This document shows, piece after piece, positions 1,723-46,229 of a stretch of DNA of 64,000 nt (positions are counted from its first letter, which is position 1; each line of letters opens with the position of its first letter). Source of the stretch: a virus; the IMG/VR virus record IMGVR_UViG_3300018080_000131, positions 1 to 64,000 of that record; one strand, written 5' to 3'. A program made the translations under genes and the position numbers. The notes under the pieces are model-generated. The model worked only from the letters and a program-made list of their open reading frames with translations, ran no database searches and was not told the origin of the DNA.

Positions 1723-4707
1723 ATGCAGTTTGCTGATTTTATAAAACTAACAGATAGTTTCAAGTTGTTTCTTGTTGAAATTAATGTTGGTGATGAGATA
1801 GAAGATGCTACTTGGGTACAAGATGTAACTTATACTAATTGTTGGTATACTGAAAATTATGATGTTGGTGTTCCTAATAAAGTAACTGAAGATGGAAGTG
1901 AATATACTGAAAGATTTACTCTTACAGAATTAAATAGTAATGCAAGTGGGTTTTATTATGATTTTGAAAATCAGAAATTATATCTTCATACTTCAGGAAG
2001 TGATGACCCAGGAAGCCAAACTGGTGATGATTATGATTATAAGATTGTTGCTTTTTCTTATAGGTATATTTGTAATAGTCAATTTGGAGATGGTAATGAA
2101 GTTGTATTTGCAAGAGAACAAGAGGCTTTAACAGATGGTAGTTTTGAACTTTGGGATTCTTCTACTGATTTAACTAATTATACAGAAACTACTGCTGGAA
2201 CTTCTACAGTAAATAGAGACAGTAGTGTTGTTTATGCTGGTGGATATTCTGTAAGAATAGATATAGATGGAAGTGGAAACAATGCTAGTATTTTACAAAA
2301 TATTATTTTAAAACCAAGTGGTAAGTGCAAAATAACTTTTAGATACAGGCATGATGGTGCTGGAATTACTTCAGTTTTAAGAATAAAAGATTCAGCTAGT
2401 AATGTTTATCTTGATTCTAGTGGGGATTGGCAAGCTGGAGCTACTAATATATCTTTAGCTAATTCTAATGCTGAATGGACAGAATATGAACTTGAATTTT
2501 ATGCTCATGATGATTATACTAATTACACTATAGAGTTTGAGGGGACAGATGCTAATTCTTCTAATTGGTTTGATGATGCTTCTTTGACAATATATAGAGA
2601 AGATAATTATTATATTCCTTTTCTTTATTCTGGTTCTCTTCCTTCTATTCAACAGGCTGTTGATGATTATTATAATAGTTCTGTAAGAATGGAATTTGGA
2701 ACTATTAGATTTATAAATGATGGTTGGTGGTATTCTCAGATTCAGAATTATTTATGGTATAAGAAAGATATTACTATTAGGTATGGAGCTAAGGGTTCTG
2801 ACTATGAGGATTTTGAAACTATCTTTACAGGTAAAACTAGAAAACCTATGGTTGGTGATGAGTTTGCTTCAATAGATGTTACTGATGTTAAGGCTTTAAT
2901 CTATAAAGAAATACCTGCTACTAAATATTGGATAAGCAATTATGCTAATTTAGAAGCTGGTGCAGAAGGGTTGCCTATTCCTATTGCTTATGGTGAAATA
3001 TATGGAATTATTCCAATTTGTATAGATACTACAGCATATGAATATAAGATTGCTAATCATGAAATAGAAGATATTTTAGATGTTTATAAAGATGGTACTG
3101 CTCTTACTGGTGGTGGTGTTGATTATACAGTTGATTTGGCTAATGGTGAGTTTACTCTTTCTTCTGACCCAGGAGATTCATTAATAACTTGTGATATTCA
3201 AGGGAAGAAGTGTGATATAGAAGATGGAACTTATTCAGATAATGTTGCTGATATTCTTTATGATATTCTTGTTAATTATTCAGATATTGATGCTAGTCAA
3301 ATAGACCTTGAATCATTTCTTGATTTAAAAGGTGGAAGAACTCAATCCCATCAATTGTATATTAATGTTGGAAGGTCTTGTGTTGAGTATGTTAGGCTTC
3401 TTCAGCAATCATCTCTATTTCATGTTATTCCTTTGACTAATGGAAAAATAGGAGCTTTTAGGTATGTAACAGGAACAAGTTCTTCTACTCCTAGATTTGT
3501 TGATGAAGACTATAATGAGTTTTCTATTATTTATGATACTTCCAATATTCATAATAAAATAAAGGTTAGATATAATCATAATCCTGGTGATGAGTCTTAT
3601 GCAAAAACAGTGAGAACTGATAGTGATGTTGAATATAAGTATGATGAAGTTAACACAAAGACTATTACAACAACATTGAAAGATGAGGCTGATGCTGAAA
3701 ATTTAGGTGATTTTTATCTTGATTTATTGAATGAACCACAAAGGAAGGTTAGTGTGGTTCTTCCAACAAGGATATTTAATTTAAGACCTGCTGAAAAAAT
3801 TATATTCAATAAAACAAGATATATGAAGGAAGGAACTGTTACTGTTTTTGATGAAGAACCTTATAGGATATTAGAATTAAATAAAAGTTTGGCTGATGGT
3901 AAGGTTAAGGTTATTGCTATTGAAGACCTTCAATCTGCTGGTGAAGGGTTTTGTGAGGTATGTTATACCTGTCAATCCTGTAATGTGGAGCAAGATGGCT
4001 CATGTTCTTCATGTTATACCTGTGAAAAGTGTGATGCTGGTGAGTGTGATTCTTGTCAATCTTGTTATTATTGTCAAAAGTGTGATGCTGGTGAGTGTTC
4101 AAGTTGTGAGGTTTGTGATAGTTGTGAGGAGTGTGAATCTGGTCAGTGTGGGACTTGTGAAACTTGTGATTCTTGTCAAACCTGTAATACATGCCAGGAT
4201 TGTGATTCTGGGGAATGTGCTACATGCCAAACTTGTGATAGTTGTGAGGAATGTGATAGTTGTCAATTAGGATGTTATACTGGTCAGTGTACTTCTTGTG
4301 AATCTTGTGATTCTTGTGAAGGGTGTAATACATGCCAAAATTGTGATAGTTGCCAAAAATGTTATTCTGGAGAGTGTTCCAGTTGTGAATCTTGTGATTC
4401 TTGTCAAACCTGTAATACATGCCAAAATTGTGATACAGGTGAGTGTTCCAGTTGTCAAAGTTGTGATACATGCCAGGATTGTTATTCTAATGAATGTACT
4501 TTATGTGAATCTTGTGATTCTTGTCAAACCTGTAATACATGCCAAAATTGTGATACAGGAGAATGTTCTAGTTGTCAGGCTTGTAATACCTGTCAAACCT
4601 GTGATAGTTGTGAAAAGTGTAATACTGGTCAATGTACTTCTTGTCAAACCTGTAATACATGCCAAAATTGTTATACCTGTGAGGTATGTGATATTGTCCA
4701 AGGATAA
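1723..4707 (+). CDS. large tail-tip/baseplate hub-like protein with a carbohydrate-binding-like insert and a C-terminal Cys-rich (Cxx)n domain
   Basis: 994 aa. DGSFELW...VYAGGYSVRI CBM-like segment; PIPIAYG typical of tail hub proteins; residues ~744-994 hold ~74 Cys (hand count) in CxxCxxC arrays. Confidence 0.7.
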   Translation: MQFADFIKLTDSFKLFLVEINVGDEIEDATWVQDVTYTNCWYTENYDVGVPNKVTEDGSEYTERFTLTELNSNASGFYYDFENQKLYLHTSGSDDPGSQTGDDYDYKIVAFSYRYICNSQFGDGNEVVFAREQEALTDGSFELWDSSTDLTNYTETTAGTSTVNRDSSVVYAGGYSVRIDIDGSGNNASILQNIILKPSGKCKITFRYRHDGAGITSVLRIKDSASNVYLDSSGDWQAGATNISLANSNAEWTEYELEFYAHDDYTNYTIEFEGTDANSSNWFDDASLTIYREDNYYIPFLYSGSLPSIQQAVDDYYNSSVRMEFGTIRFINDGWWYSQIQNYLWYKKDITIRYGAKGSDYEDFETIFTGKTRKPMVGDEFASIDVTDVKALIYKEIPATKYWISNYANLEAGAEGLPIPIAYGEIYGIIPICIDTTAYEYKIANHEIEDILDVYKDGTALTGGGVDYTVDLANGEFTLSSDPGDSLITCDIQGKKCDIEDGTYSDNVADILYDILVNYSDIDASQIDLESFLDLKGGRTQSHQLYINVGRSCVEYVRLLQQSSLFHVIPLTNGKIGAFRYVTGTSSSTPRFVDEDYNEFSIIYDTSNIHNKIKVRYNHNPGDESYAKTVRTDSDVEYKYDEVNTKTITTTLKDEADAENLGDFYLDLLNEPQRKVSVVLPTRIFNLRPAEKIIFNKTRYMKEGTVTVFDEEPYRILELNKSLADGKVKVIAIEDLQSAGEGFCEVCYTCQSCNVEQDGSCSSCYTCEKCDAGECDSCQSCYYCQKCDAGECSSCEVCDSCEECESGQCGTCETCDSCQTCNTCQDCDSGECATCQTCDSCEECDSCQLGCYTGQCTSCESCDSCEGCNTCQNCDSCQKCYSGECSSCESCDSCQTCNTCQNCDTGECSSCQSCDTCQDCYSNECTLCESCDSCQTCNTCQNCDTGECSSCQACNTCQTCDSCEKCNTGQCTSCQTCNTCQNCYTCEVCDIVQG

Positions 4708-5523
4708 AAGAGGTAAATAATGGGTTGTGCTGTTTGTGAGTCATGTAATACTTGTGAAGTATGTGATTCTGTAGTTTGTGGAAGCTGTCAAGCTTGTAAT
4801 GCTTGTCAGGCTTGCTATACAGGGGAGTGTTCTACATGCCAGGATTGTGATAGCTGTCAAACAGCTTGTTATACTGGTCAATGTGCTAGTTGTCAGAATT
4901 GTTATACTTGTGAATCTTGTGATTCTGGTCAATGTGCTGTTTGTCAATCCTGTGATTCTTGTGAATCATGTAATACCTGTCAAACTTGTGATTCTTGTGA
5001 GGCTTGCTATACAGGTGAGTGTTCTACTTGTGAAACTTGTTATACTTGTGAAAAATGTGATGCTTGTCAAGTATGTGAAGCTGGTCAGTGTGCATCTTGT
5101 CAAACTTGTGTAGCTTGTGAAACCTGTGATAGTTGTGAAGGGTGTAATGTGTGTCAATCCTGTAATGCTTGTGAAGCTTGTTATACTGGTCAGTGTCCAA
5201 GTTGTCAATCCTGTGTAAGTTGTCAAACCTGTGATAGTTGTGAAACATCTTGTTATACTGGTCAGTGTTCATCCTGTCAGGTATGTGATAGTTGTCAGGA
5301 TTGTGTGGTAAAACAATGTGCTAGTTGTCAATCCTGTGATGCTTGTGAGTCATGTAATACATGCCAAAATTGTGATTCTTGTGAAGCTTGTTATACTGGT
5401 CAGTGTGCTACATGCCAGGATTGTAATGCTTGTCAAACCTGTGATAGCTGTCAAACAGCTTGTTATACTGGTCAGTGTGTTAATTGTCAAGTATGTGATG
5501 ATTGTCAGGAATGTGATACCTGT
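3952..5523 (+). repeat. coding tandem repeats TGT-N6 (Cys every third codon) spanning two genes
   Basis: 9-nt periodicity. The longer block TGTGATTCTTGTCAAACCTGTAATACATGCCA recurs near 4165, 4393 and 4513. Confidence 0.95.
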
Positions 5524-5550
5524 CAAAATTCTTATATAATAGAACCATAA
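4720..5550 (+). CDS. Cys-rich repeat protein, putative radical SAM substrate
   Basis: 276 aa with ~81 Cys (hand count). CxxCxxC runs joined by CYTGQC/CDSGQC linkers; SD GAGG upstream. Confidence 0.85.
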   Translation: MGCAVCESCNTCEVCDSVVCGSCQACNACQACYTGECSTCQDCDSCQTACYTGQCASCQNCYTCESCDSGQCAVCQSCDSCESCNTCQTCDSCEACYTGECSTCETCYTCEKCDACQVCEAGQCASCQTCVACETCDSCEGCNVCQSCNACEACYTGQCPSCQSCVSCQTCDSCETSCYTGQCSSCQVCDSCQDCVVKQCASCQSCDACESCNTCQNCDSCEACYTGQCATCQDCNACQTCDSCQTACYTGQCVNCQVCDDCQECDTCQNSYIIEP

Positions 5551-5566
5551 TAGGAGAAAATATAAA

Positions 5567-7066
5567 ATGAAAGAATGTGAAACTTGTGAAAGTTGTTATA
5601 CTTGTGAAAAAAGTGTTATTTCAAGTATAACAAAAGAACAATTAGATGAAGCAAAAAAGAAAGGTGGTATTCCTTCTGAATGGTTGAGAGATTTAGATTG
5701 TGAAAACTGTTTTTCTTGTCAGAAGTGTGATACAAGTCAAGAAGTTGACAAATGTGGAAACTGCTATGCTTGTCAGAAGTGTGATACTCACCAAGGAAAT
5801 GCTGGTGATGGGTTAAATAATTGTGAAAATTGTTTCTCTTGTCAGAAGTGTGTTTCTCAGCAAGCTAATTGTGAAAATTGCTATACCTGTCAGGTTGGTG
5901 ATGTTTCTAATGATTCTTGTAAAGGTGGTGTTTGTAAGGTAAAGAAGGATGAGGATTATGTTAATAATATAACCTATTTCTTATTTCCAACAAATAATTG
6001 TAACTTGAGATGTACTTATTGTTATGCTACAAAAACTCCTAAAGAAATGGATGCTGAAACCTTAGCTCAGGCTGGAGAATTTATACTTGGTCCAGAGGAA
6101 GAGAGGAATCCTGGGAGAAGGGTTAATATTCAGTTTTTTGGTGGAGAACCTATGTTGAAATGGAATATGCTAACTACATTTATTGATTGGATGAATGAGG
6201 AAGCAAGAAAAAGATTAGGAAGAAAGATTAATTGGGGTATGACCACAAATGGTACTCTTTTAAATGAAGAAAGAATTAAGTGGATGAAGGAGCATAATTT
6301 AAGACCTTTATTGAGTGTTGATGGTAGAAAGGAAACTCATAATAAGCATAGGATTTATGCTAATGGAAGAGGTTCTTTTGATGATATTCCTTTTGATACT
6401 TTTTTGAAATATTTTCCTAATCCAGAATTAAGACCAACAATTCTTCCTGATACTGTAGAAGGTTGGATTGAAGATTTGTATTGGTTTCATTCTAAGGGAT
6501 GTTATAATGTTGCTACAGAGGTTGCTTATGAGGCTGATTGGGATGATGAGGCTATGGCTAAGGCTTGGAGAACTTATGATAAGATGGGAGATATTTATAT
6601 TCAATTTAGGAAAGCTGGGAAGAAAGATTTTTGGATGAAGTTTATAATGGATGGTTTGAATACTTTAGGTATAGAAAGACAAACAGGAACAGTATGTGGA
6701 ATTGCAAGAAATACTGTAGCCATTGATGCTCATGGTTGGCTTTATGCTTGTCAGAGATATGCTGATTTTAATAATCCTGATTTGAAGATTGGAGATATTT
6801 GGGAAGGTTGGGATTATGACAAGTTGAAGGAATGGAGAAGTTTGAGAAGAGAACATATGTATCCTGACCCAAGAAGTGGTTTTGATTGTGAAACTTGTCC
6901 TGCTAGATGGAAATGCAGAGGTGGTTGTAATGCTATGAATTATCAATGTAATAATGATAGAAAAATGATATTGGAAAATCATTGTAAGTTTCAGAGAATG
7001 TGGGCTTTAATAACATTAAGAGTGTTGTCAGCAACAGGAGAGTTACATAGGAAAATTAGAAGATAA
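5567..7066 (+). CDS. radical SAM/SPASM peptide/protein maturase with Cys-rich N-terminal extension
   Basis: CNLRCTYC rSAM motif, FFGGEP, TTNGTLL, SVDG. SPASM cysteines CGIARN...YACQ...IGDI...CETCPARWKCRGGC...HC. SD GGAG. Confidence 0.95.
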   Translation: MKECETCESCYTCEKSVISSITKEQLDEAKKKGGIPSEWLRDLDCENCFSCQKCDTSQEVDKCGNCYACQKCDTHQGNAGDGLNNCENCFSCQKCVSQQANCENCYTCQVGDVSNDSCKGGVCKVKKDEDYVNNITYFLFPTNNCNLRCTYCYATKTPKEMDAETLAQAGEFILGPEEERNPGRRVNIQFFGGEPMLKWNMLTTFIDWMNEEARKRLGRKINWGMTTNGTLLNEERIKWMKEHNLRPLLSVDGRKETHNKHRIYANGRGSFDDIPFDTFLKYFPNPELRPTILPDTVEGWIEDLYWFHSKGCYNVATEVAYEADWDDEAMAKAWRTYDKMGDIYIQFRKAGKKDFWMKFIMDGLNTLGIERQTGTVCGIARNTVAIDAHGWLYACQRYADFNNPDLKIGDIWEGWDYDKLKEWRSLRREHMYPDPRSGFDCETCPARWKCRGGCNAMNYQCNNDRKMILENHCKFQRMWALITLRVLSATGELHRKIRR

Positions 7067-8463
7067 TGGATTTTATAACTAGTGAAGAGTATGAGAATAC
7101 TGTAAGAAATATTCTCAAAAGACTTGATGGAAAGATTGATAAATCAGGTGGTAGTATATCTGGTGATGTAGATATTACTGGAACATTAAGTATTAAATCT
7201 CAAAATGAATTAAGATTCTATGATAATGGAAATTATGTAGGGTTTGAAGCTCCTGCTTTATCTGGGAATCAGATTTGGGTTCTTCCTGATGCAGATGGAG
7301 GTGCTAATGAGGCTTTAGGCACAGATGGTGGTGGAAATCTGATATGGAGAAACCATGATGAACTTGCTGGGTATGTTGCTGATGAGCATATTGATTGGAC
7401 AAATGCTACTGATAATTTAAGCACAAGTGGAAATATATTTACAACTGGTGGTCATTACTATGCTCCAAATGATGCTAAAATTTATTTTAGAGATGTTGGT
7501 GATACTGGCTACATAAGAGCTTTAAATGTTAATACTAATGACCATACAACATTAAATGCTAGTTCTGGTAAAGATATAATTTTTATGGAGAATGTTAGTG
7601 CTAAGATGAGATTAGTTAGTGGGGATTTTGGAATAGGTACAAATACTCCTGCTACAGTTGCTTCTGCTTCTCTTGGTGGTACAGTTCTTCATGTTTTAGA
7701 TAGTAGTGCTGATGGTAGATTGGTTGCTTCAGGTGCTACAGGAGCTAATTTAAATCTTGTTGATACTGGTGGTGGCTCTAATGATAAATGGTTACAGCTA
7801 GATGTTGATGGTGGTATTGGAAAATTTGCTTCTGTTGCTGATGCTGGTACAAGTTTTGTATCTAATAATATTCTTGTTATGGATTTAGGAAATGGTAATG
7901 TTGGGATAGGTACAAATACTCCAGGTGATGAGCTTGAGGTTAATGGCAATATAATGGCTAATGGGATAGGGTTGGGGAAATCTCCTACTCAGTTAATTGA
8001 TATGCAAGCTGAGAGTGCTTTATGCCCTATTTATATGACAGCTATAACCTCAACTAGCCAATGGCAATCTCCTCAAATTTTAACAAGAAGAGCAAGAGGA
8101 ACTGTTGGCTCTATATCTGCTGTTGCAGATGGAGATTTACTTTATAGGAATGATATATATGCCTATGATGGAAGTGATTATGTCTTAGCTGGTCATATAA
8201 GATGCCAAATGCAAGATGACCCAACAGATGTAGGTAATATTACACCATGTTCTCTTGGTTTTGCTGTTCAAGACTCCTCGGGTAATTTAAGAATAGCTAC
8301 TCAATTTGGTGAGTATTTTTATCTTCAACATGGTGTTCTTGCTATGGCAGAAACTACAACTCCTTCTGCTATTGCAAGAGTTGGAAAATTGTATACAAAG
8401 AGTGATAATAAACTTTATTTCCAGGATGGTGGTGGTACTGAACATGAAATGGCTTATGCATAA
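7066..8463 (+). CDS. tail fibre / receptor-binding-like protein
   Basis: Repeated GNVGIGTNTP/GDFGIGTNTP motifs; WVLPDADG and KLYFQDGGGTE segments typical of fibre proteins. Start overlaps the rSAM stop (TAATG). Confidence 0.75.
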   Translation: MDFITSEEYENTVRNILKRLDGKIDKSGGSISGDVDITGTLSIKSQNELRFYDNGNYVGFEAPALSGNQIWVLPDADGGANEALGTDGGGNLIWRNHDELAGYVADEHIDWTNATDNLSTSGNIFTTGGHYYAPNDAKIYFRDVGDTGYIRALNVNTNDHTTLNASSGKDIIFMENVSAKMRLVSGDFGIGTNTPATVASASLGGTVLHVLDSSADGRLVASGATGANLNLVDTGGGSNDKWLQLDVDGGIGKFASVADAGTSFVSNNILVMDLGNGNVGIGTNTPGDELEVNGNIMANGIGLGKSPTQLIDMQAESALCPIYMTAITSTSQWQSPQILTRRARGTVGSISAVADGDLLYRNDIYAYDGSDYVLAGHIRCQMQDDPTDVGNITPCSLGFAVQDSSGNLRIATQFGEYFYLQHGVLAMAETTTPSAIARVGKLYTKSDNKLYFQDGGGTEHEMAYA

Positions 8464-26477: not shown

Positions 26478-27680
26478 ATGAGTAAAAAGAAAAATAAAAA
26501 TAAAAAAGGAAATATTAAACCTACAAAAGAAAAACTGAATAATGTTTTTAATAATCCAAATGGTGATTATGATTGTGGTAAAAAAAACATTTATTTTCTT
26601 TATAATCCAAGAGAAATTTCTTATTCTTTAAAAATTGGTGGTACAGATAAAGATATTGATGCACAAATAAAGAGATATTCAACACAAACTCCAGATATTA
26701 AATCTGTTGGTGATAAGAGAGTATATCCTTCTAATCTTTTAAGTGAATGGTTAGTAAAAATTTTATTTAAGGAATATCATGATAGGGGGGAAAAATATAA
26801 TTTAACTGATGAAATTAAAGAAAGGGTAAGAATTTTAGATAAATTTTTATCAGATGAATCTTATAATTTTGATAATGAATTTAAAGAAGATGAAGTTCTT
26901 GAATTGAATAGAAGAAAAACTTTAGATTATAACAGGTTTTGGTATCTTTCTACTAATAGAACTTTTACAGAGAATGATATTACTAACTTGAAAAAAAATT
27001 TTTATGATAAATTCAAAGAACATTTATCTCTATCTTCAGAAGATTTTCCAATTAGGGTTATTAAATATAGAGGTTTGTTTTTTATTGTTGATGGTCAAAA
27101 ACAATTTATATTAAAAAAAAGGGAAAAATTGCCAATTGTATATACTATAGAAAAGATAGCAGATTCATTAGAAGATGCAAATGAACATATTATTTTTTTT
27201 ATTTTACAAAGTGAAATGCAAAAATCTTGGAAAGCAGATGAGCTTATTTATTCATTAGCTAAAATGGGTAATTATACCCATAAACAGTTAGTAAGTATAA
27301 TGAAAGAATTAGGTTTAACAAGAAGTATTTTAAATGAATTAATACCAAGTTTACCAAAAAAACCTTCAGATTTAATTAAATATAATAATATTCCAAAAAA
27401 AGAACAAGAAGAATTTAAAAAAAATGTTATGTTTTTTCATAGTCTTAAGGAATATATACCTACATTTTGGAATAGTGCAAATTGGATTTGTGGTTGTATG
27501 ATGGCAAAAAAAGAGTTGGAAAAAAAAGGAATGAAAGATTTTTTCAATTCTCTAAAATTTACTTTAGAAAATTTTTCTTCTTTAGAAAATATTTCTCCTG
27601 ATAAATTAGAGTTTACTGATAGTCATGCCAAGGGTTATATTAGGGATGAGATTATTAAGATTTTAACTCATAGTTATTAA
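26478..27680 (+). CDS. protein with GIY-YIG/T5orf172-like N-terminus and ParB/Srx-like domain
   Basis: IYFLYN...LKIGGT; PIRV...FIVDGQKQ (ParB-like DGxHR variant); very AT-rich. Confidence 0.5.
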   Translation: MSKKKNKNKKGNIKPTKEKLNNVFNNPNGDYDCGKKNIYFLYNPREISYSLKIGGTDKDIDAQIKRYSTQTPDIKSVGDKRVYPSNLLSEWLVKILFKEYHDRGEKYNLTDEIKERVRILDKFLSDESYNFDNEFKEDEVLELNRRKTLDYNRFWYLSTNRTFTENDITNLKKNFYDKFKEHLSLSSEDFPIRVIKYRGLFFIVDGQKQFILKKREKLPIVYTIEKIADSLEDANEHIIFFILQSEMQKSWKADELIYSLAKMGNYTHKQLVSIMKELGLTRSILNELIPSLPKKPSDLIKYNNIPKKEQEEFKKNVMFFHSLKEYIPTFWNSANWICGCMMAKKELEKKGMKDFFNSLKFTLENFSSLENISPDKLEFTDSHAKGYIRDEIIKILTHSY

Positions 27681-27690
27681 GGAAAGCAAT

Positions 27691-28683
27691 ATGAATAAAT
27701 ATATAGGTATGTATTCTTTTGATGCTGAACAGCAATCAAGAAGAAAGAAAAATAAAAAGAAACAGTTTCCTAATTTAGCATTAATGAAATTATCAACATA
27801 TTTTAAAAATAAAGATTATAGAGTTGAGCTTTATAATGAAGAGAAAGATAAAAATGGTTATTATGATAAAGTTTTTGTAAGTGTTGTGTTTGATTGGTCA
27901 TTAAAAAAATTACCAAAAAATATTCCTAGTCATTGGGAAGTTGGTGGTTATGCTTATGATATTAATAAAAAATTACCTATTAATGCTGAACATTTAGTTC
28001 CAGATTATGATTTATTTGATTGTGATTCTTATTATGGTTTTACAACAAGAGGGTGTTTTAGAAATTGCTCATTTTGTTTTGTGCCAAAAGCAGAAGGAAA
28101 GTTTAGGAGATATGTTGAAGATATTAATGAATTTTGTCCATCTGATAAAGGATTTACAAAAATAACATTACTTGATAATAATATATTATATGATAAAGAA
28201 CATTTCATTAATATATCAAATCAGATTATAGATAAAAATTTGTTAGTTGATTTTAATCAAGGCTTGGACCATAGATTGGTATGTGATGATGATATATTAA
28301 ATATTTTAACCAAATTGAAACATAGAGAATATAGATTTTCATTTGATTTTATTGAATATAAAAATAATGTTATTAAAACTATTGAGTGTTTAAAAAAACA
28401 TGGATTAAAGAAAAATTTTTGGTATGTTTTAGTTGGGTATAATACAACAATAGAAGAGGATTTAGAAAGATTAAAAATTTTAAGAGATTATAAGCAGGTT
28501 GTTTATGTTCAAAGATATAATAAAAGTAAAGATAGATTGTTAATACCTTTAGCTCAATGGGCTAATCAACCTTGGATTTTTTATAGTTATACATGGAATG
28601 ATTTTATTACTCATCCAAGTAAAGAAAGATACAGAAAATTATATGAAGAAAATAATTTACCATTAAGTTTAGAATCTATATAA
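27691..28683 (+). CDS. radical SAM protein (phage-type, no SPASM)
   Basis: PNLALMKLS, PDYDL, TTRGCFRNCSFCFVPKAEG, LLDNN, DFNQGLD. Confidence 0.9.
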   Translation: MNKYIGMYSFDAEQQSRRKKNKKKQFPNLALMKLSTYFKNKDYRVELYNEEKDKNGYYDKVFVSVVFDWSLKKLPKNIPSHWEVGGYAYDINKKLPINAEHLVPDYDLFDCDSYYGFTTRGCFRNCSFCFVPKAEGKFRRYVEDINEFCPSDKGFTKITLLDNNILYDKEHFINISNQIIDKNLLVDFNQGLDHRLVCDDDILNILTKLKHREYRFSFDFIEYKNNVIKTIECLKKHGLKKNFWYVLVGYNTTIEEDLERLKILRDYKQVVYVQRYNKSKDRLLIPLAQWANQPWIFYSYTWNDFITHPSKERYRKLYEENNLPLSLESI

Positions 28684-44036: not shown

Positions 44037-44563
44037 AAATTAGATTTATAATAGAAATTTATAATAAATATGATTATTTTGGTAAAGATGAGTTTAGAAC
44101 TTTTAGAGTTGTTGATGATACAGATGTTAATTCTATTGAAACTGCTGAAATAGAAATTAAAAAATTGATTGATAAATTTAATGAAGAAGAAAAAAATAAT
44201 TATGGAGAAAAGGCTGGAAGTAGAAAATTATTAAGAATTATTGATGAAGAAAAATTAAAAAAGTGTCCAACTGAATTAATATGGGATTCTTATATGAGAC
44301 AGGAATTACAGGGTGAGTGTTCTGAATGTGGGTATAAGTTTATTGATTTTTTTAATAGAGGAAAACAAAAACCAGAAAATTTTAAACATTGTTTGGGTTT
44401 TGGTCAATCAAGAGTTAAAAATTTTGATAGAGTTATTGTTTTTGAGTGTCCAAAATGTTTTTTAAAATCACAATTTCATTGTAATGATAATTGGTATGAT
44501 TTATATGGTGAATGGATTGTTGATAATTCTATATTTTTGAAAGATGAGAAAAATAATGAGTAA
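44033..44563 (+). CDS. hypothetical protein with Zn ribbon
   Basis: CSEC...CPKC. Confidence 0.55.
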   Translation: MKIRFIIEIYNKYDYFGKDEFRTFRVVDDTDVNSIETAEIEIKKLIDKFNEEEKNNYGEKAGSRKLLRIIDEEKLKKCPTELIWDSYMRQELQGECSECGYKFIDFFNRGKQKPENFKHCLGFGQSRVKNFDRVIVFECPKCFLKSQFHCNDNWYDLYGEWIVDNSIFLKDEKNNE

Positions 44564-46229
44564 AGCTGTGTGTGATTTAAAAGGTGGTTCTTGTGTTGCA
44601 GAAGCAAGGTATTATAGTGAAGGAGAAGATTGGGATAAGTTGGCTATGAGAGTTTCACAGGCTATTGGTGTTAATGAAAGTGATATTGTGGTAGCTCAAA
44701 CATATGATATAATAAATAGAAAAGAGTTTATTCCTGGTGGTAGGATTCTTAGAAATGCAGGAAAGCTAAAAAGAAATCTTTTAAACTGTTTTGTTATTCC
44801 TATTGATGATAGTATAGAGGCTATTGCTAATTGTATGAGAGATTCATTAATAACTTGGTCTTCTGGTGGTGGAGTAGGTGTTAATTTTTCTCCATTAAGA
44901 CCAGTAGGAGAAGAGATTAAAGGGAAAGGTGGTGAGTCTTCAGGATTGGTATCTTTCCTAGAGGCTATGGATGCTGTTGCTAATACTATTGAGTGTGGTG
45001 GTCAAAGAAGGAGTGCTTGTATTGCTATTGTTGATATTTCTCATCCAGAGATAGAAGAGTTTATTGATGCAAAGTTGAAGCATGGGAAGTTGAAAAACTT
45101 TAATATATCAGTTGGTATTAATGATGCATTTCTTGAAGCAGTAGAAAGAGGGAATGGCTGGAATTTAGAGTTTAGGCAAAAGGTATATAAAGAGGTAATG
45201 GCTAGAGATTTGTGGGATAAGATTCTAAAAAACATGATTAATTCAGCAGAACCAGGATTGTTGAATATGAGTAATTTGACTAAAGCTAATAGTTATTACT
45301 TTTCTCCTATTATTGCTACTAATCCTTGTGGAGAACTTCCTTTGAGTGCTTATGGTTCTTGTGATTTAGGAGCTTTGAATTTACCTTTATTTGTTACTCC
45401 AGGTGGTTATACTAATTGGAAATCTTTGGAAGATGTTATAAAATTAGCTGTTAGGTTTTTGGATAATGTTATAGATATAACTACATACCCAATTCCACAA
45501 ATGAAAGAAGTTGCAGAAAAAGGAAGAAGAGTTGGTTTGGGGATAATGGGATTAGCTGATTATTTATTTCTGAAGAAAATAAGATATGGTTCTGAAAAGG
45601 CTAATAATGAGATTGAACATTTGTTTAAGTTTATTAGAAATACAGCATATGAAACAAGTATAAAGCTTGCAAAAGAAAAAGAACCTTTCCCAGCATTTGA
45701 TTCAGTGGATTATGGTAAGGCTAGTTTTGTTAGGAAGCTTCCTGCTAAGATAAGAAAGGCTATAAAGGAAAATGGTATTAGGAATTCTTCTCTTTTAACA
45801 GTTGCTCCTACAGGTACAACAAGTATGGTAGGAGAAGTTACAAGTGGAATTGAGCCTTTGTTTTCTAAAGCACATAGAAGAAAGGATGCTTTAGGTGAGA
45901 GAGTTATTATTCATCCTATGTATATAGAATTTTTGAAAGATGGGAAGATTCCTGATTGGTTTGTTGATGCTCATGATTTGAAACCAGAAGAGCATTTTGA
46001 AACACAGGCTTTGATTCAGAAATATGTGGATGGAAGTATAAGCAAAACAATTAATCTTCCTGCTAATACAACAGTTAAGCAGTTGTCAGAATGGCTTCTT
46101 GAATATGCTTATGAGTTGAAGGGAGTTACAGTGTATGTTGATAAAAGTAGGAAGGAGCAGGTTTTGTATCCTATGAGTAAAAAGGAAGTAAAAGAATATT
46201 TGAAGGAGAAGGAAAATGAAAGCAAGTAA
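44544..46229 (+). CDS. nrdJ: ribonucleotide reductase, class II (B12-dependent), compact
   Basis: PGGRIL, NCFV, GGGVG, TNPCGE, SCDLGALNL, RRVGLGIMG, APTGT, SGIEP, ISKTINLP. Ends TVYVDKSRKEQVL with no class I Tyr-Tyr pair. Confidence 0.9.
   Translation: MRKIMSKAVCDLKGGSCVAEARYYSEGEDWDKLAMRVSQAIGVNESDIVVAQTYDIINRKEFIPGGRILRNAGKLKRNLLNCFVIPIDDSIEAIANCMRDSLITWSSGGGVGVNFSPLRPVGEEIKGKGGESSGLVSFLEAMDAVANTIECGGQRRSACIAIVDISHPEIEEFIDAKLKHGKLKNFNISVGINDAFLEAVERGNGWNLEFRQKVYKEVMARDLWDKILKNMINSAEPGLLNMSNLTKANSYYFSPIIATNPCGELPLSAYGSCDLGALNLPLFVTPGGYTNWKSLEDVIKLAVRFLDNVIDITTYPIPQMKEVAEKGRRVGLGIMGLADYLFLKKIRYGSEKANNEIEHLFKFIRNTAYETSIKLAKEKEPFPAFDSVDYGKASFVRKLPAKIRKAIKENGIRNSSLLTVAPTGTTSMVGEVTSGIEPLFSKAHRRKDALGERVIIHPMYIEFLKDGKIPDWFVDAHDLKPEEHFETQALIQKYVDGSISKTINLPANTTVKQLSEWLLEYAYELKGVTVYVDKSRKEQVLYPMSKKEVKEYLKEKENESK

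Follow-up and report, generated by a model that had tools for sequence, protein, structure and literature searches.

Radical S-adenosylmethionine (rSAM) enzymes that carry a SPASM domain cross-link Cys-rich substrates, and this chemistry is known from small secreted peptides (peptides made by the ribosome and modified after translation, or RiPPs), from the protein subunit QhpC and, since 2026, from the archaeal protein CrpA. The maturase QhpD makes Cys-to-Asp/Glu thioethers, three links in all, in QhpC, an enzyme subunit of ~80 aa. CteB, the SCIFF maturase of Clostridium thermocellum, acts on the six-Cys peptide CteA (thermocellin), and a CXXX-repeat system pairs a Cys-periodic target (TIGR04114) with a dedicated SPASM maturase (TIGR04115). 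In the freyrasin system of Paenibacillus polymyxa, PapB joins the Cys sulfur of PapA, within CX3D/E motifs, to C-beta of Asp or C-gamma of Glu and tolerates spacings of 0-6, as well as in-line and nested motifs (PMC9413430). Further, CrpC of Methanococcus voltae installs ranthionine links in a 28.8-kDa Cys-repeat protein, CrpA, with CxxQ/D motifs (PMC13692751). Here, we describe a putative viral counterpart at positions 1723-7066 of a 64,000-nucleotide stretch of DNA (positions 1-64,000 of IMG/VR record IMGVR_UViG_3300018080_000131, whose full phage contig spans 101 kb; hereafter, the window). Specifically, three consecutive genes encode a baseplate hub protein that ends in a repeat with Cys at every third residue, a free-standing protein built of the same repeat, and an rSAM/SPASM enzyme. 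The best reading of this trio, and one that we hold to be probable, is that the phage enzyme staples the central needle of the tail with thioether links.

The locus is of a known kind, in that an rSAM/SPASM maturase accompanies a Cys-rich substrate, while its biological setting is new. As in PapB/PapA, the candidate substrate is rich in Cys whose i+4 position is taken by an acidic or amide residue. However, the phage substrates would be a virion protein of 994 aa and a second protein of 276 aa, with ~70-80 sites, rather than a ~50-aa peptide with six; they lack a leader peptide, their acceptors would include Asn and Gln, and they are encoded in a phage tail operon. With CteB, the phage enzyme shares the seven-Cys SPASM layout that leaves an open site on auxiliary cluster I, although CteB has an N-terminal RiPP recognition element (RRE) and a 6-Cys peptide substrate. 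The CrpC/CrpA system likewise has a full-size repeat-protein substrate, a second related repeat protein encoded alongside and a repeat whose fold AlphaFold is unsure of (PMC13692751), but CrpC belongs to another rSAM family and has an RRE, and CrpA, an archaeal protein of unknown function, has a leader-like N-terminus of 47 residues and a repeat unit of 17 residues rather than 3. QhpD resembles the phage enzyme in acting on a protein subunit, not a free peptide, and the CXXX-repeat system differs from the window in its period, which is 3 here, although some hub homologues do repeat with a period of 4. The original prediction, made from the sequence alone, knew of no described case of an rSAM maturase acting on a virion protein; our full-text literature searches likewise found no paper linking the two, and in the literature searched, no hub or fiber is described that has Cys-triplet repeats or a modifying enzyme of its own. 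New here are the carrier, which is the baseplate hub; a hub-anchored synteny free of exceptions; a parallel His/Asp system with its own enzyme class; and the rule that an enzyme bears its partner's motif instead of an RRE.

The hub, its cysteine repeat and the free-standing repeat protein

The three genes (1723-4707, 4720-5550 and 5567-7066) all lie on the + strand, with gaps of 12 and 16 nt and no terminator-like site seen between them, and the stop codon of the rSAM gene overlaps the start codon of the next gene (7066-8463). This anatomy agrees with the original prediction in all but one respect: the 994-aa product of the first gene, which had been placed after the tail tip, is itself the tail-tip protein. 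Sequence libraries returned for it only phrog_8917, of unknown function, and a weak match to carbohydrate-binding modules (CBMs), and a PDB sequence search returned nothing meaningful. [quoted passage not shown] With Foldseek, this model matched PDB entries for the T5-like DT57C baseplate (8hqz_A, E 3.5e-18), the T5 tail tip (7zqp_b, 7zhj_b, 9ioz_J) and the lambda tail tip (8xcg_J, 8k35_A), as well as the tail tips of T1, Chi and JBD30, Mu gp44 and VgrG hubs. For 8hqz_A, 7zqp_b, 9ioz_J and 8xcg_J, the Foldseek probability was 1.00, with E from 3.5e-18 to 1e-11 over ~760-795 aligned columns; the TM-scores were low (0.2-0.45), which we attribute to a different domain arrangement.

By this fold, and by its position after the genes for the tape measure protein and the distal tail protein (Dit), the core (residues 1-743; 1723-3951) falls among the hub or central tail-tip proteins with the fold of T5 pb3, lambda gpJ and Mu gp44. 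The core contains 7 Cys and a beta-sandwich insert (residues ~130-290) that matches CBM16/CBM4 modules by Foldseek. The 1723-4707 product is thus, as modeled, the baseplate hub that closes the tail tube, of the T5 pb3 or lambda gpJ type in both core fold and genomic position, and its homologues suggest that it is trimeric. The expectation that the repeat-bearing protein belongs to the virion tail is accordingly borne out by the predicted fold and by the gene order, which together place the Cys repeat as a distal extension of a trimeric tail tip. In lambda gpJ, the C-terminal part forms the central fiber. With tblastn, the hub matched nothing among 50,697 GenBank phages. Nor did a scan of 185,579 prokaryote species genomes yield any hub relative, so that none of them points to a host.

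The repeat domain begins right after a conserved junction, DLQ[ST]xG, and occupies residues 744-994 (3952-4707). Of its 251 residues, 74 are Cys, with a spacing of exactly 3 in 61 of the 73 Cys-to-Cys gaps. The units read C-[QDEN]-[ST] and are interrupted every ~7-9 Cys by C-x-x-G-[EQ]-C linkers; the domain is ~30% Cys, contains 43 Asp and Glu against 4 Lys and Arg, and is devoid of His, Trp, Phe and Pro. The free-standing protein (276 aa; 4720-5550), which has its own ribosome-binding site and ATG start and a weak match to phrog_15341, holds 81 Cys with 66 of 80 gaps equal to 3, and its N-terminal ~30 residues are conserved. When 12 of its homologues (39-63% identity) were aligned, all 26 invariant columns were Cys. 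The Cys counts originally given for both proteins hold, and they stand against a Cys share of 1.25% in the other open reading frames (ORFs) of the same 101-kb contig. The ESM Atlas contained no usable match for the 276-aa protein, and a complex prediction that paired it with hub residues 735-994 scored 0.00, which argues neither for nor against binding.

Two other readings of these repeats were considered. First, the units are only 63-88% alike at the DNA level (with higher-order periods of 51-210 nt), which rules out recent DNA slippage and points to an old array that has been kept by selection. Second, the small ORF and the hub share a reading frame in most loci (4705-4722 in the window, and L082, L084, L093, L107, L112, L114 and L004), often with one TAA between them. 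Nothing, however, pointed to ribosomes reading through the hub stop into the small ORF, as the stop codon is a strong one (mostly TAA), two stops stand in the window, and the small gene has its own ribosome-binding site and start.

Within the repeats, the residues between successive Cys follow a grammar. The first spacer of the CxxC triplets is Asp, Glu, Asn or Gln in 47 of 61 cases in the hub and 50 of 66 in the small protein (background 23%; p ~1e-18), and the second is Ser or Thr in 42 of 61 and 38 of 66, respectively (background 9.5%). Because of the preference at the first spacer, one of the same four residues stands at i+4 of most Cys (67/74 in the hub, 67/81 in the small protein), with Asp or Glu alone accounting for 35/74 and 30/81; the four-residue bias at i+4 recurs in loci L002-L005. 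Both proteins therefore have the make-up of a ranthipeptide-type substrate, in which Cys is followed a few residues on by an acceptor (e.g., CX3D) that is Asp or Glu and, in some other members, Asn or Thr, and their overlapping CX3[D/E/N/Q] motifs match the CX3D/E rule of PapB and resemble the CxxQ/D motifs of CrpA.

The radical SAM/SPASM enzyme

The enzyme (5567-7066) belongs to the radical SAM superfamily, with a match to PF04055 (E 1.4e-13; 51.8 bits against a cutoff of 29.5) and a cluster motif, CNLRCTYC (C145, C149 and C152; 5999-6022), that is invariant in 23 homologues. The complete SPASM domain that had been predicted is also present (6695-6985). Specifically, its seven Cys (C377-x12-G390-x4-C395, C441-x2-C444-x5-C450-x3-C454 and C473) are invariant in the same 23 homologues, follow the pattern by which SPASM domains hold two auxiliary clusters (CX9-15GX4C ... 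CX2CX5CX3C ... C) and are seen in the alignment with CteB (5wgg), although the Pfam SPASM model itself gave no match at E 0.01. Seven conserved SPASM Cys suggest one auxiliary cluster with an open iron, and such an iron has been proposed to bind the substrate Cys in CteB and CrpC (PMC13692751).

Among the NCBIfam profiles, the best match was PapB (NF047865), at 213.4 bits over profile positions 7-327 of 330, followed by the SCIFF maturase (TIGR03974, 145.6 bits), a nif11-peptide maturase and QhpD (TIGR03906, 140 bits); the closest solved structure was that of CteB (5wgg, E 2e-34, enzyme residues 139-477). These matches agree with the original placing of the enzyme in the thioether-forming SPASM group, yet no curated rule admits it to a named family. 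It falls below the cutoffs for PapB (340 bits), QhpD (453) and the SCIFF maturase (425), and its neighbors are the repeat proteins rather than a SCIFF-like 45-aa precursor. The CXXX-repeat families (TIGR04115/TIGR04114) reached 114.1 bits against 350, with a Cys spacing of 3 and not 4, and the CrpC-type family (TIGR04463) reached 62.6 against 525, in the N-terminal core only. Identity to cellular relatives is ~27%. A maximum-likelihood tree placed 23 such enzymes and two further metagenome rows in one clade (SH-aLRT 98), apart from the clade with Paenibacillus (PapB-like) and Sphingobium/Acetobacter (QhpD-like) rows. Judged by its closest profiles, this phage-only clade is part of the thioether-forming group that includes PapB, CteB and QhpD.

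Its separateness, together with scores below the cutoffs of all characterized families and further core matches to anSME (81 bits) and to the sactisynthase RumMC (60 bits), would also suit another radical modification of the same substrates, be it sactionine (alpha-carbon) links, conversion of Cys to formylglycine as by anSME, or inter-chain links. We think such a reaction improbable, given that ranthionine-forming enzymes (PapB, CteB and QhpD) supply the highest scores and all of the full-length matches, that the acceptor-type residues beside each Cys fit a beta- or gamma-carbon linkage, and that the anSME target motif, C/S-x-P/A-x-R, is absent.

The thioether-forming enzyme proposed here differs from PapB and other ranthipeptide systems at its N-terminus, where neither Pfam nor NCBIfam returned an RRE/PqqD match. 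In the place where an RRE would be stands an extension (residues 1-~130; 5567-5960) with CxxC[YF][TSA]C[EQ]x[CG] motifs, present in 1-8 copies per protein across the 23 aligned homologues as a variable array. C7, C10, C13, C86, C89 and C92 are nearly invariant in this set, the spacers include a conserved P-x-E-W, and the shortest homologue (P0039) keeps only ~45 residues before the CNLRC motif. In the hub, the Cys domain starts with this motif too, as CEVCYTCQSC and CSSCYTCEKC in the window and with equivalents in most of the other loci compared.

The ~55 close homologues of the enzyme are all metagenomic. Across the 185,579 prokaryote species genomes, its best match reached only 27-30% identity, and among the 50,697 GenBank phages, the best (30% identity) came from phage Phass-1, where no Cys repeat was noted nearby. 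Nothing turned up when IMG/VR was scanned with the single enzyme sequence, whereas an alignment-based scan did find relatives. In one of these loci (L002:8747-11071), the enzyme gene is interrupted by a ~320-aa intein (Hint plus LAGLIDADG endonuclease) inside the cluster motif, CX3C|X2C. Inteins typically occupy conserved active-site motifs of their host proteins.

Co-variation of repeat and enzyme, and the proposed cross-linking

The hub core, and not the enzyme, served as the query against IMG/VR and JGI metagenome contigs, which leaves the sample unbiased towards rSAM-bearing loci. Fourteen Cys-type loci with downstream DNA, from ~11 lineages, were obtained (the window, L082, L084, L087, L088, L090, L004, L093, L094, L106, L107, L111, L112 and L114), and all 14 hold the intact trio of a hub with a (Cxx)n tail, a small (Cxx)n ORF and an rSAM enzyme with the motif CNLRC[TD]YC. 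Their enzymes are 37-66% identical, and those scanned scored as PapB-like (198-281 bits). The synteny that the original prediction proposed to look for is thus conserved without exception in these searches, and a repeat-bearing tail homologue lacking an adjacent rSAM gene, which would have spoken against a link between the two, occurred in none of the 14 loci. Two hub homologues without a repeat (L116 and L199) have no rSAM gene downstream. Further, as the L116 hub directly precedes a protein that resembles the 7066-8463 product at its N-terminus, the small-protein and enzyme genes have the appearance of an insertion between those for hub and fiber.

The same loci bear on whether the phage merely carries a RiPP or bacteriocin cassette, with the small protein as the precursor of a secreted Cys-rich product that benefits the host and the hub repeat as an unrelated feature or a recombination by-product. 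A phage rSAM maturase has been read as an antibiotic-synthesis gene in cyanophages (PMC12801897), and the conserved N-terminal ~30 residues of the small protein could act like a leader. But the module has no protease, exporter or immunity gene and sits inside the tail operon, between hub and fiber gene; every locus has the repeat as an in-frame extension of the structural hub; the product would have a length of 100-314 aa; and the enzyme clade is absent from the prokaryote genomes searched. We therefore regard a cassette of this kind as very improbable.

Beyond the Cys-type loci, many hub homologues carry, after the same junction, a His/Asp repeat with a period of 5 (xHxDx, e.g., AHSDV or PHTDT). 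In all 11 such loci with downstream DNA (L089, L096, L097, L101-L105, L108, L109 and L113), the hub is followed by a different class of rSAM/SPASM enzyme, with the motif CN[GA]xC[AK]SC (examples include L096:6968-10973, L089:6586-10698 and L104:1948-5939). These enzymes match anSME or DynA best (65-92 bits) and PapB at only 41-47 bits, form their own clade in the tree (support 100), and end in HGDxPHGD motifs, which copy their partner's repeat; like the Cys-type enzymes, they show no recognizable RRE. Other hub homologues (P0152, P0248, P0257 and P0270) have a C-[EQ]-x-x repeat with a period of 4 and ~36-48 Cys after the same junction; a scan for loci of this Cxxx type returned only one repeat-less relative. 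Hence, repeat type, enzyme class and the motif borne by the enzyme change together, a pattern not easily accounted for if the enzyme neither acts on the repeat nor assembles with it. From this, a broader generalization can be drawn, to which we lend slightly less than even credence: that hubs across a large tailed-phage family bear interchangeable C-terminal repeat tips (Cys every third, Cys every fourth or His/Asp every fifth residue), of which the period-3 Cys and the His/Asp tips are each matured by a phage rSAM/SPASM enzyme of their own that uses a copy of the repeat, instead of an RRE and leader, to recognize its substrate. A central tail needle with covalent cross-links, and possibly with metal as well, would result, and at least two distinct radical chemistries would be involved, one of them acting on His/Asp.

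For the Cys-type loci, the residue grammar and the precedent of PapB and CrpC make serial Cys-to-Asp/Glu/Asn/Gln thioethers the most economical mechanism. In this scheme, the enzyme would act on both repeat proteins, binding the unfolded repeat in the infected, reducing cell, with its N-terminal copies of the repeat motif serving in place of an RRE to dock onto the substrate or to assemble with it. A substrate Cys would ligate the open iron of auxiliary cluster I, at the one site that, as in CteB and CrpC, is not taken up by the seven SPASM Cys. The 5'-deoxyadenosyl radical would then take a beta or gamma hydrogen from a neighboring Asp, Glu, Asn or Gln, most simply the one at i+4, and a ranthionine-type thioether would form between the Cys sulfur and that carbon. 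The register, the use of Asn and Gln, and the placing of the links within or between chains are inferred. Repeated along the chain, the reaction would yield a ladder of overlapping small rings and hence a redox-insensitive, covalently stiffened needle or fiber, and the small protein would presumably be a part of the virion as well.

Several observations weigh against stapling. The enzyme lies below the curated cutoff of every named family, so that its reaction cannot be transferred by membership; sequence alone does not fix the acceptor register, which may be i+1, i+4 or i-2 and may lie in one chain or span two; and the members are known from sequence alone, all relatives being uncultured. Full modification would take ~150 turnovers per pair of hub and small protein, and enzymes of this type are usually described as slow. 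No fold was predicted for either repeat, with pLDDT ~32 for the Cys domain of the hub and 43.7 for the 276-aa protein, the latter modeled by AlphaFold2 with 12 homologues. Finally, a metal-binding domain would be expected to look much the same, rich in Cys, Asp and Glu.

This last point leads to the main rival, for which the original prediction had also left room, a metal- or iron-sulfur-loaded needle in which Cys triplets from three hub chains hold a column of metal or clusters along the fiber axis, while the rSAM enzyme does otherwise or makes only a few links. The CxxCxxC motif has the classic ligand spacing of ferredoxins, and the domain combines Cys in CxxC spacing with strong acidity. 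An apo sequence that AlphaFold cannot fold would also suit such a needle. Many hub homologues carry His/Asp repeats at the same position, and HxH motifs in tail fibers bind iron, as at the tip of T4 gp37, a trimeric needle stabilized by metal through short His motifs (PMC11705849). A metal column alone, however, would leave unexplained the always-adjacent rSAM enzyme of the thioether-forming group, the separate rSAM enzyme that accompanies the His-type repeat, and the preference for Asp, Glu, Asn or Gln at one specific position. We thus judge it unlikely as an alternative to stapling, with which it may coexist.

If thioether stapling of the needle is correct, a virus builds a part of its own particle with this chemistry, at the structure that makes first contact with the host and penetrates it, and the cross-linked needle would be a post-translationally synthesized material within a virion. 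Phages of anaerobes would thereby gain disulfide-like stability without oxygen, and a role would emerge for many "orphan" phage rSAM maturases, which are sometimes taken for antibiotic-synthesis genes. The enzymes would be natural, highly processive and leader-independent thioether formers, with 70-80 sites per substrate, and as such of interest for peptide and protein stapling, while the paired His/Asp-repeat system would point to a second, undescribed radical modification.

Pairings of this general sort were also seen farther afield. More distant phage rSAM/SPASM genes in IMG/VR have Cys-rich neighbors with 16-86 Cys in various spacings (L006, L009-L011, L019, L034, L050, L062, L072, L075, L079 and L080), which suggests that the pairing extends much wider than this family. 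In the His-type loci, the rSAM gene is followed by a conserved gene for a 260-300-aa protein with a weak DUF483 match (L096:10955-12681, L104:5933-6721) and, in L096, by a family-2 glycosyltransferase gene as well; these may be further modification genes.

Neighboring genes

Upstream of the hub, the window opens with the C-terminal end of a tape measure gene (1-528, + strand), a 5'-open ORF cut by the contig start, whose product is 32-42% identical to the C-termini of the Cys-free proteins of 1369-1759 aa that precede the hub in L094, L116 and L084. Another Cys-free ORF, of 1073 aa (L118:13856-17074), is cut by the 3' end of this contig and, by its character and position, is the N-terminal part of the tape measure protein. 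Since the contig both starts and ends inside this gene, the 101-kb record represents a circularly permuted or broken genome and not a true linear end. The next gene (535-1641, + strand) occupies the position of a distal tail protein, matches phrog_8610 and encodes 368 aa that are 31-56% identical to the product of the ORF that immediately precedes the hub, whether the locus is Cys-type, His-type or repeat-less. The order of tape measure, Dit and hub genes is conserved among the related loci, and from this order the tail is assigned to the siphovirus type.

Directly after the enzyme, a 465-aa gene (7066-8463, + strand) had no family match in NCBIfam, Pfam or phrog searches. With 50% identity, residues 41-122 of its product resemble the protein encoded immediately downstream of the repeat-less hub homologue in L116 (L116:7468-10629), which suggests a shared anchor domain of tail fibers, and the product is probably a fiber or receptor-binding protein anchored to the tail tip.

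Elsewhere in the window, the ribonucleotide reductase (44544-46229) is a class II, adenosylcobalamin (B12)-dependent NrdJ (516 bits, above the cutoff). This oxygen-independent class is compatible with an anaerobic host, though no proof of one. A second radical SAM gene (26478-28683), unrelated to the tail enzyme and with no NCBIfam match, belongs to phrog_9298 and adjoins a ParB-like gene beside the DNA polymerase.

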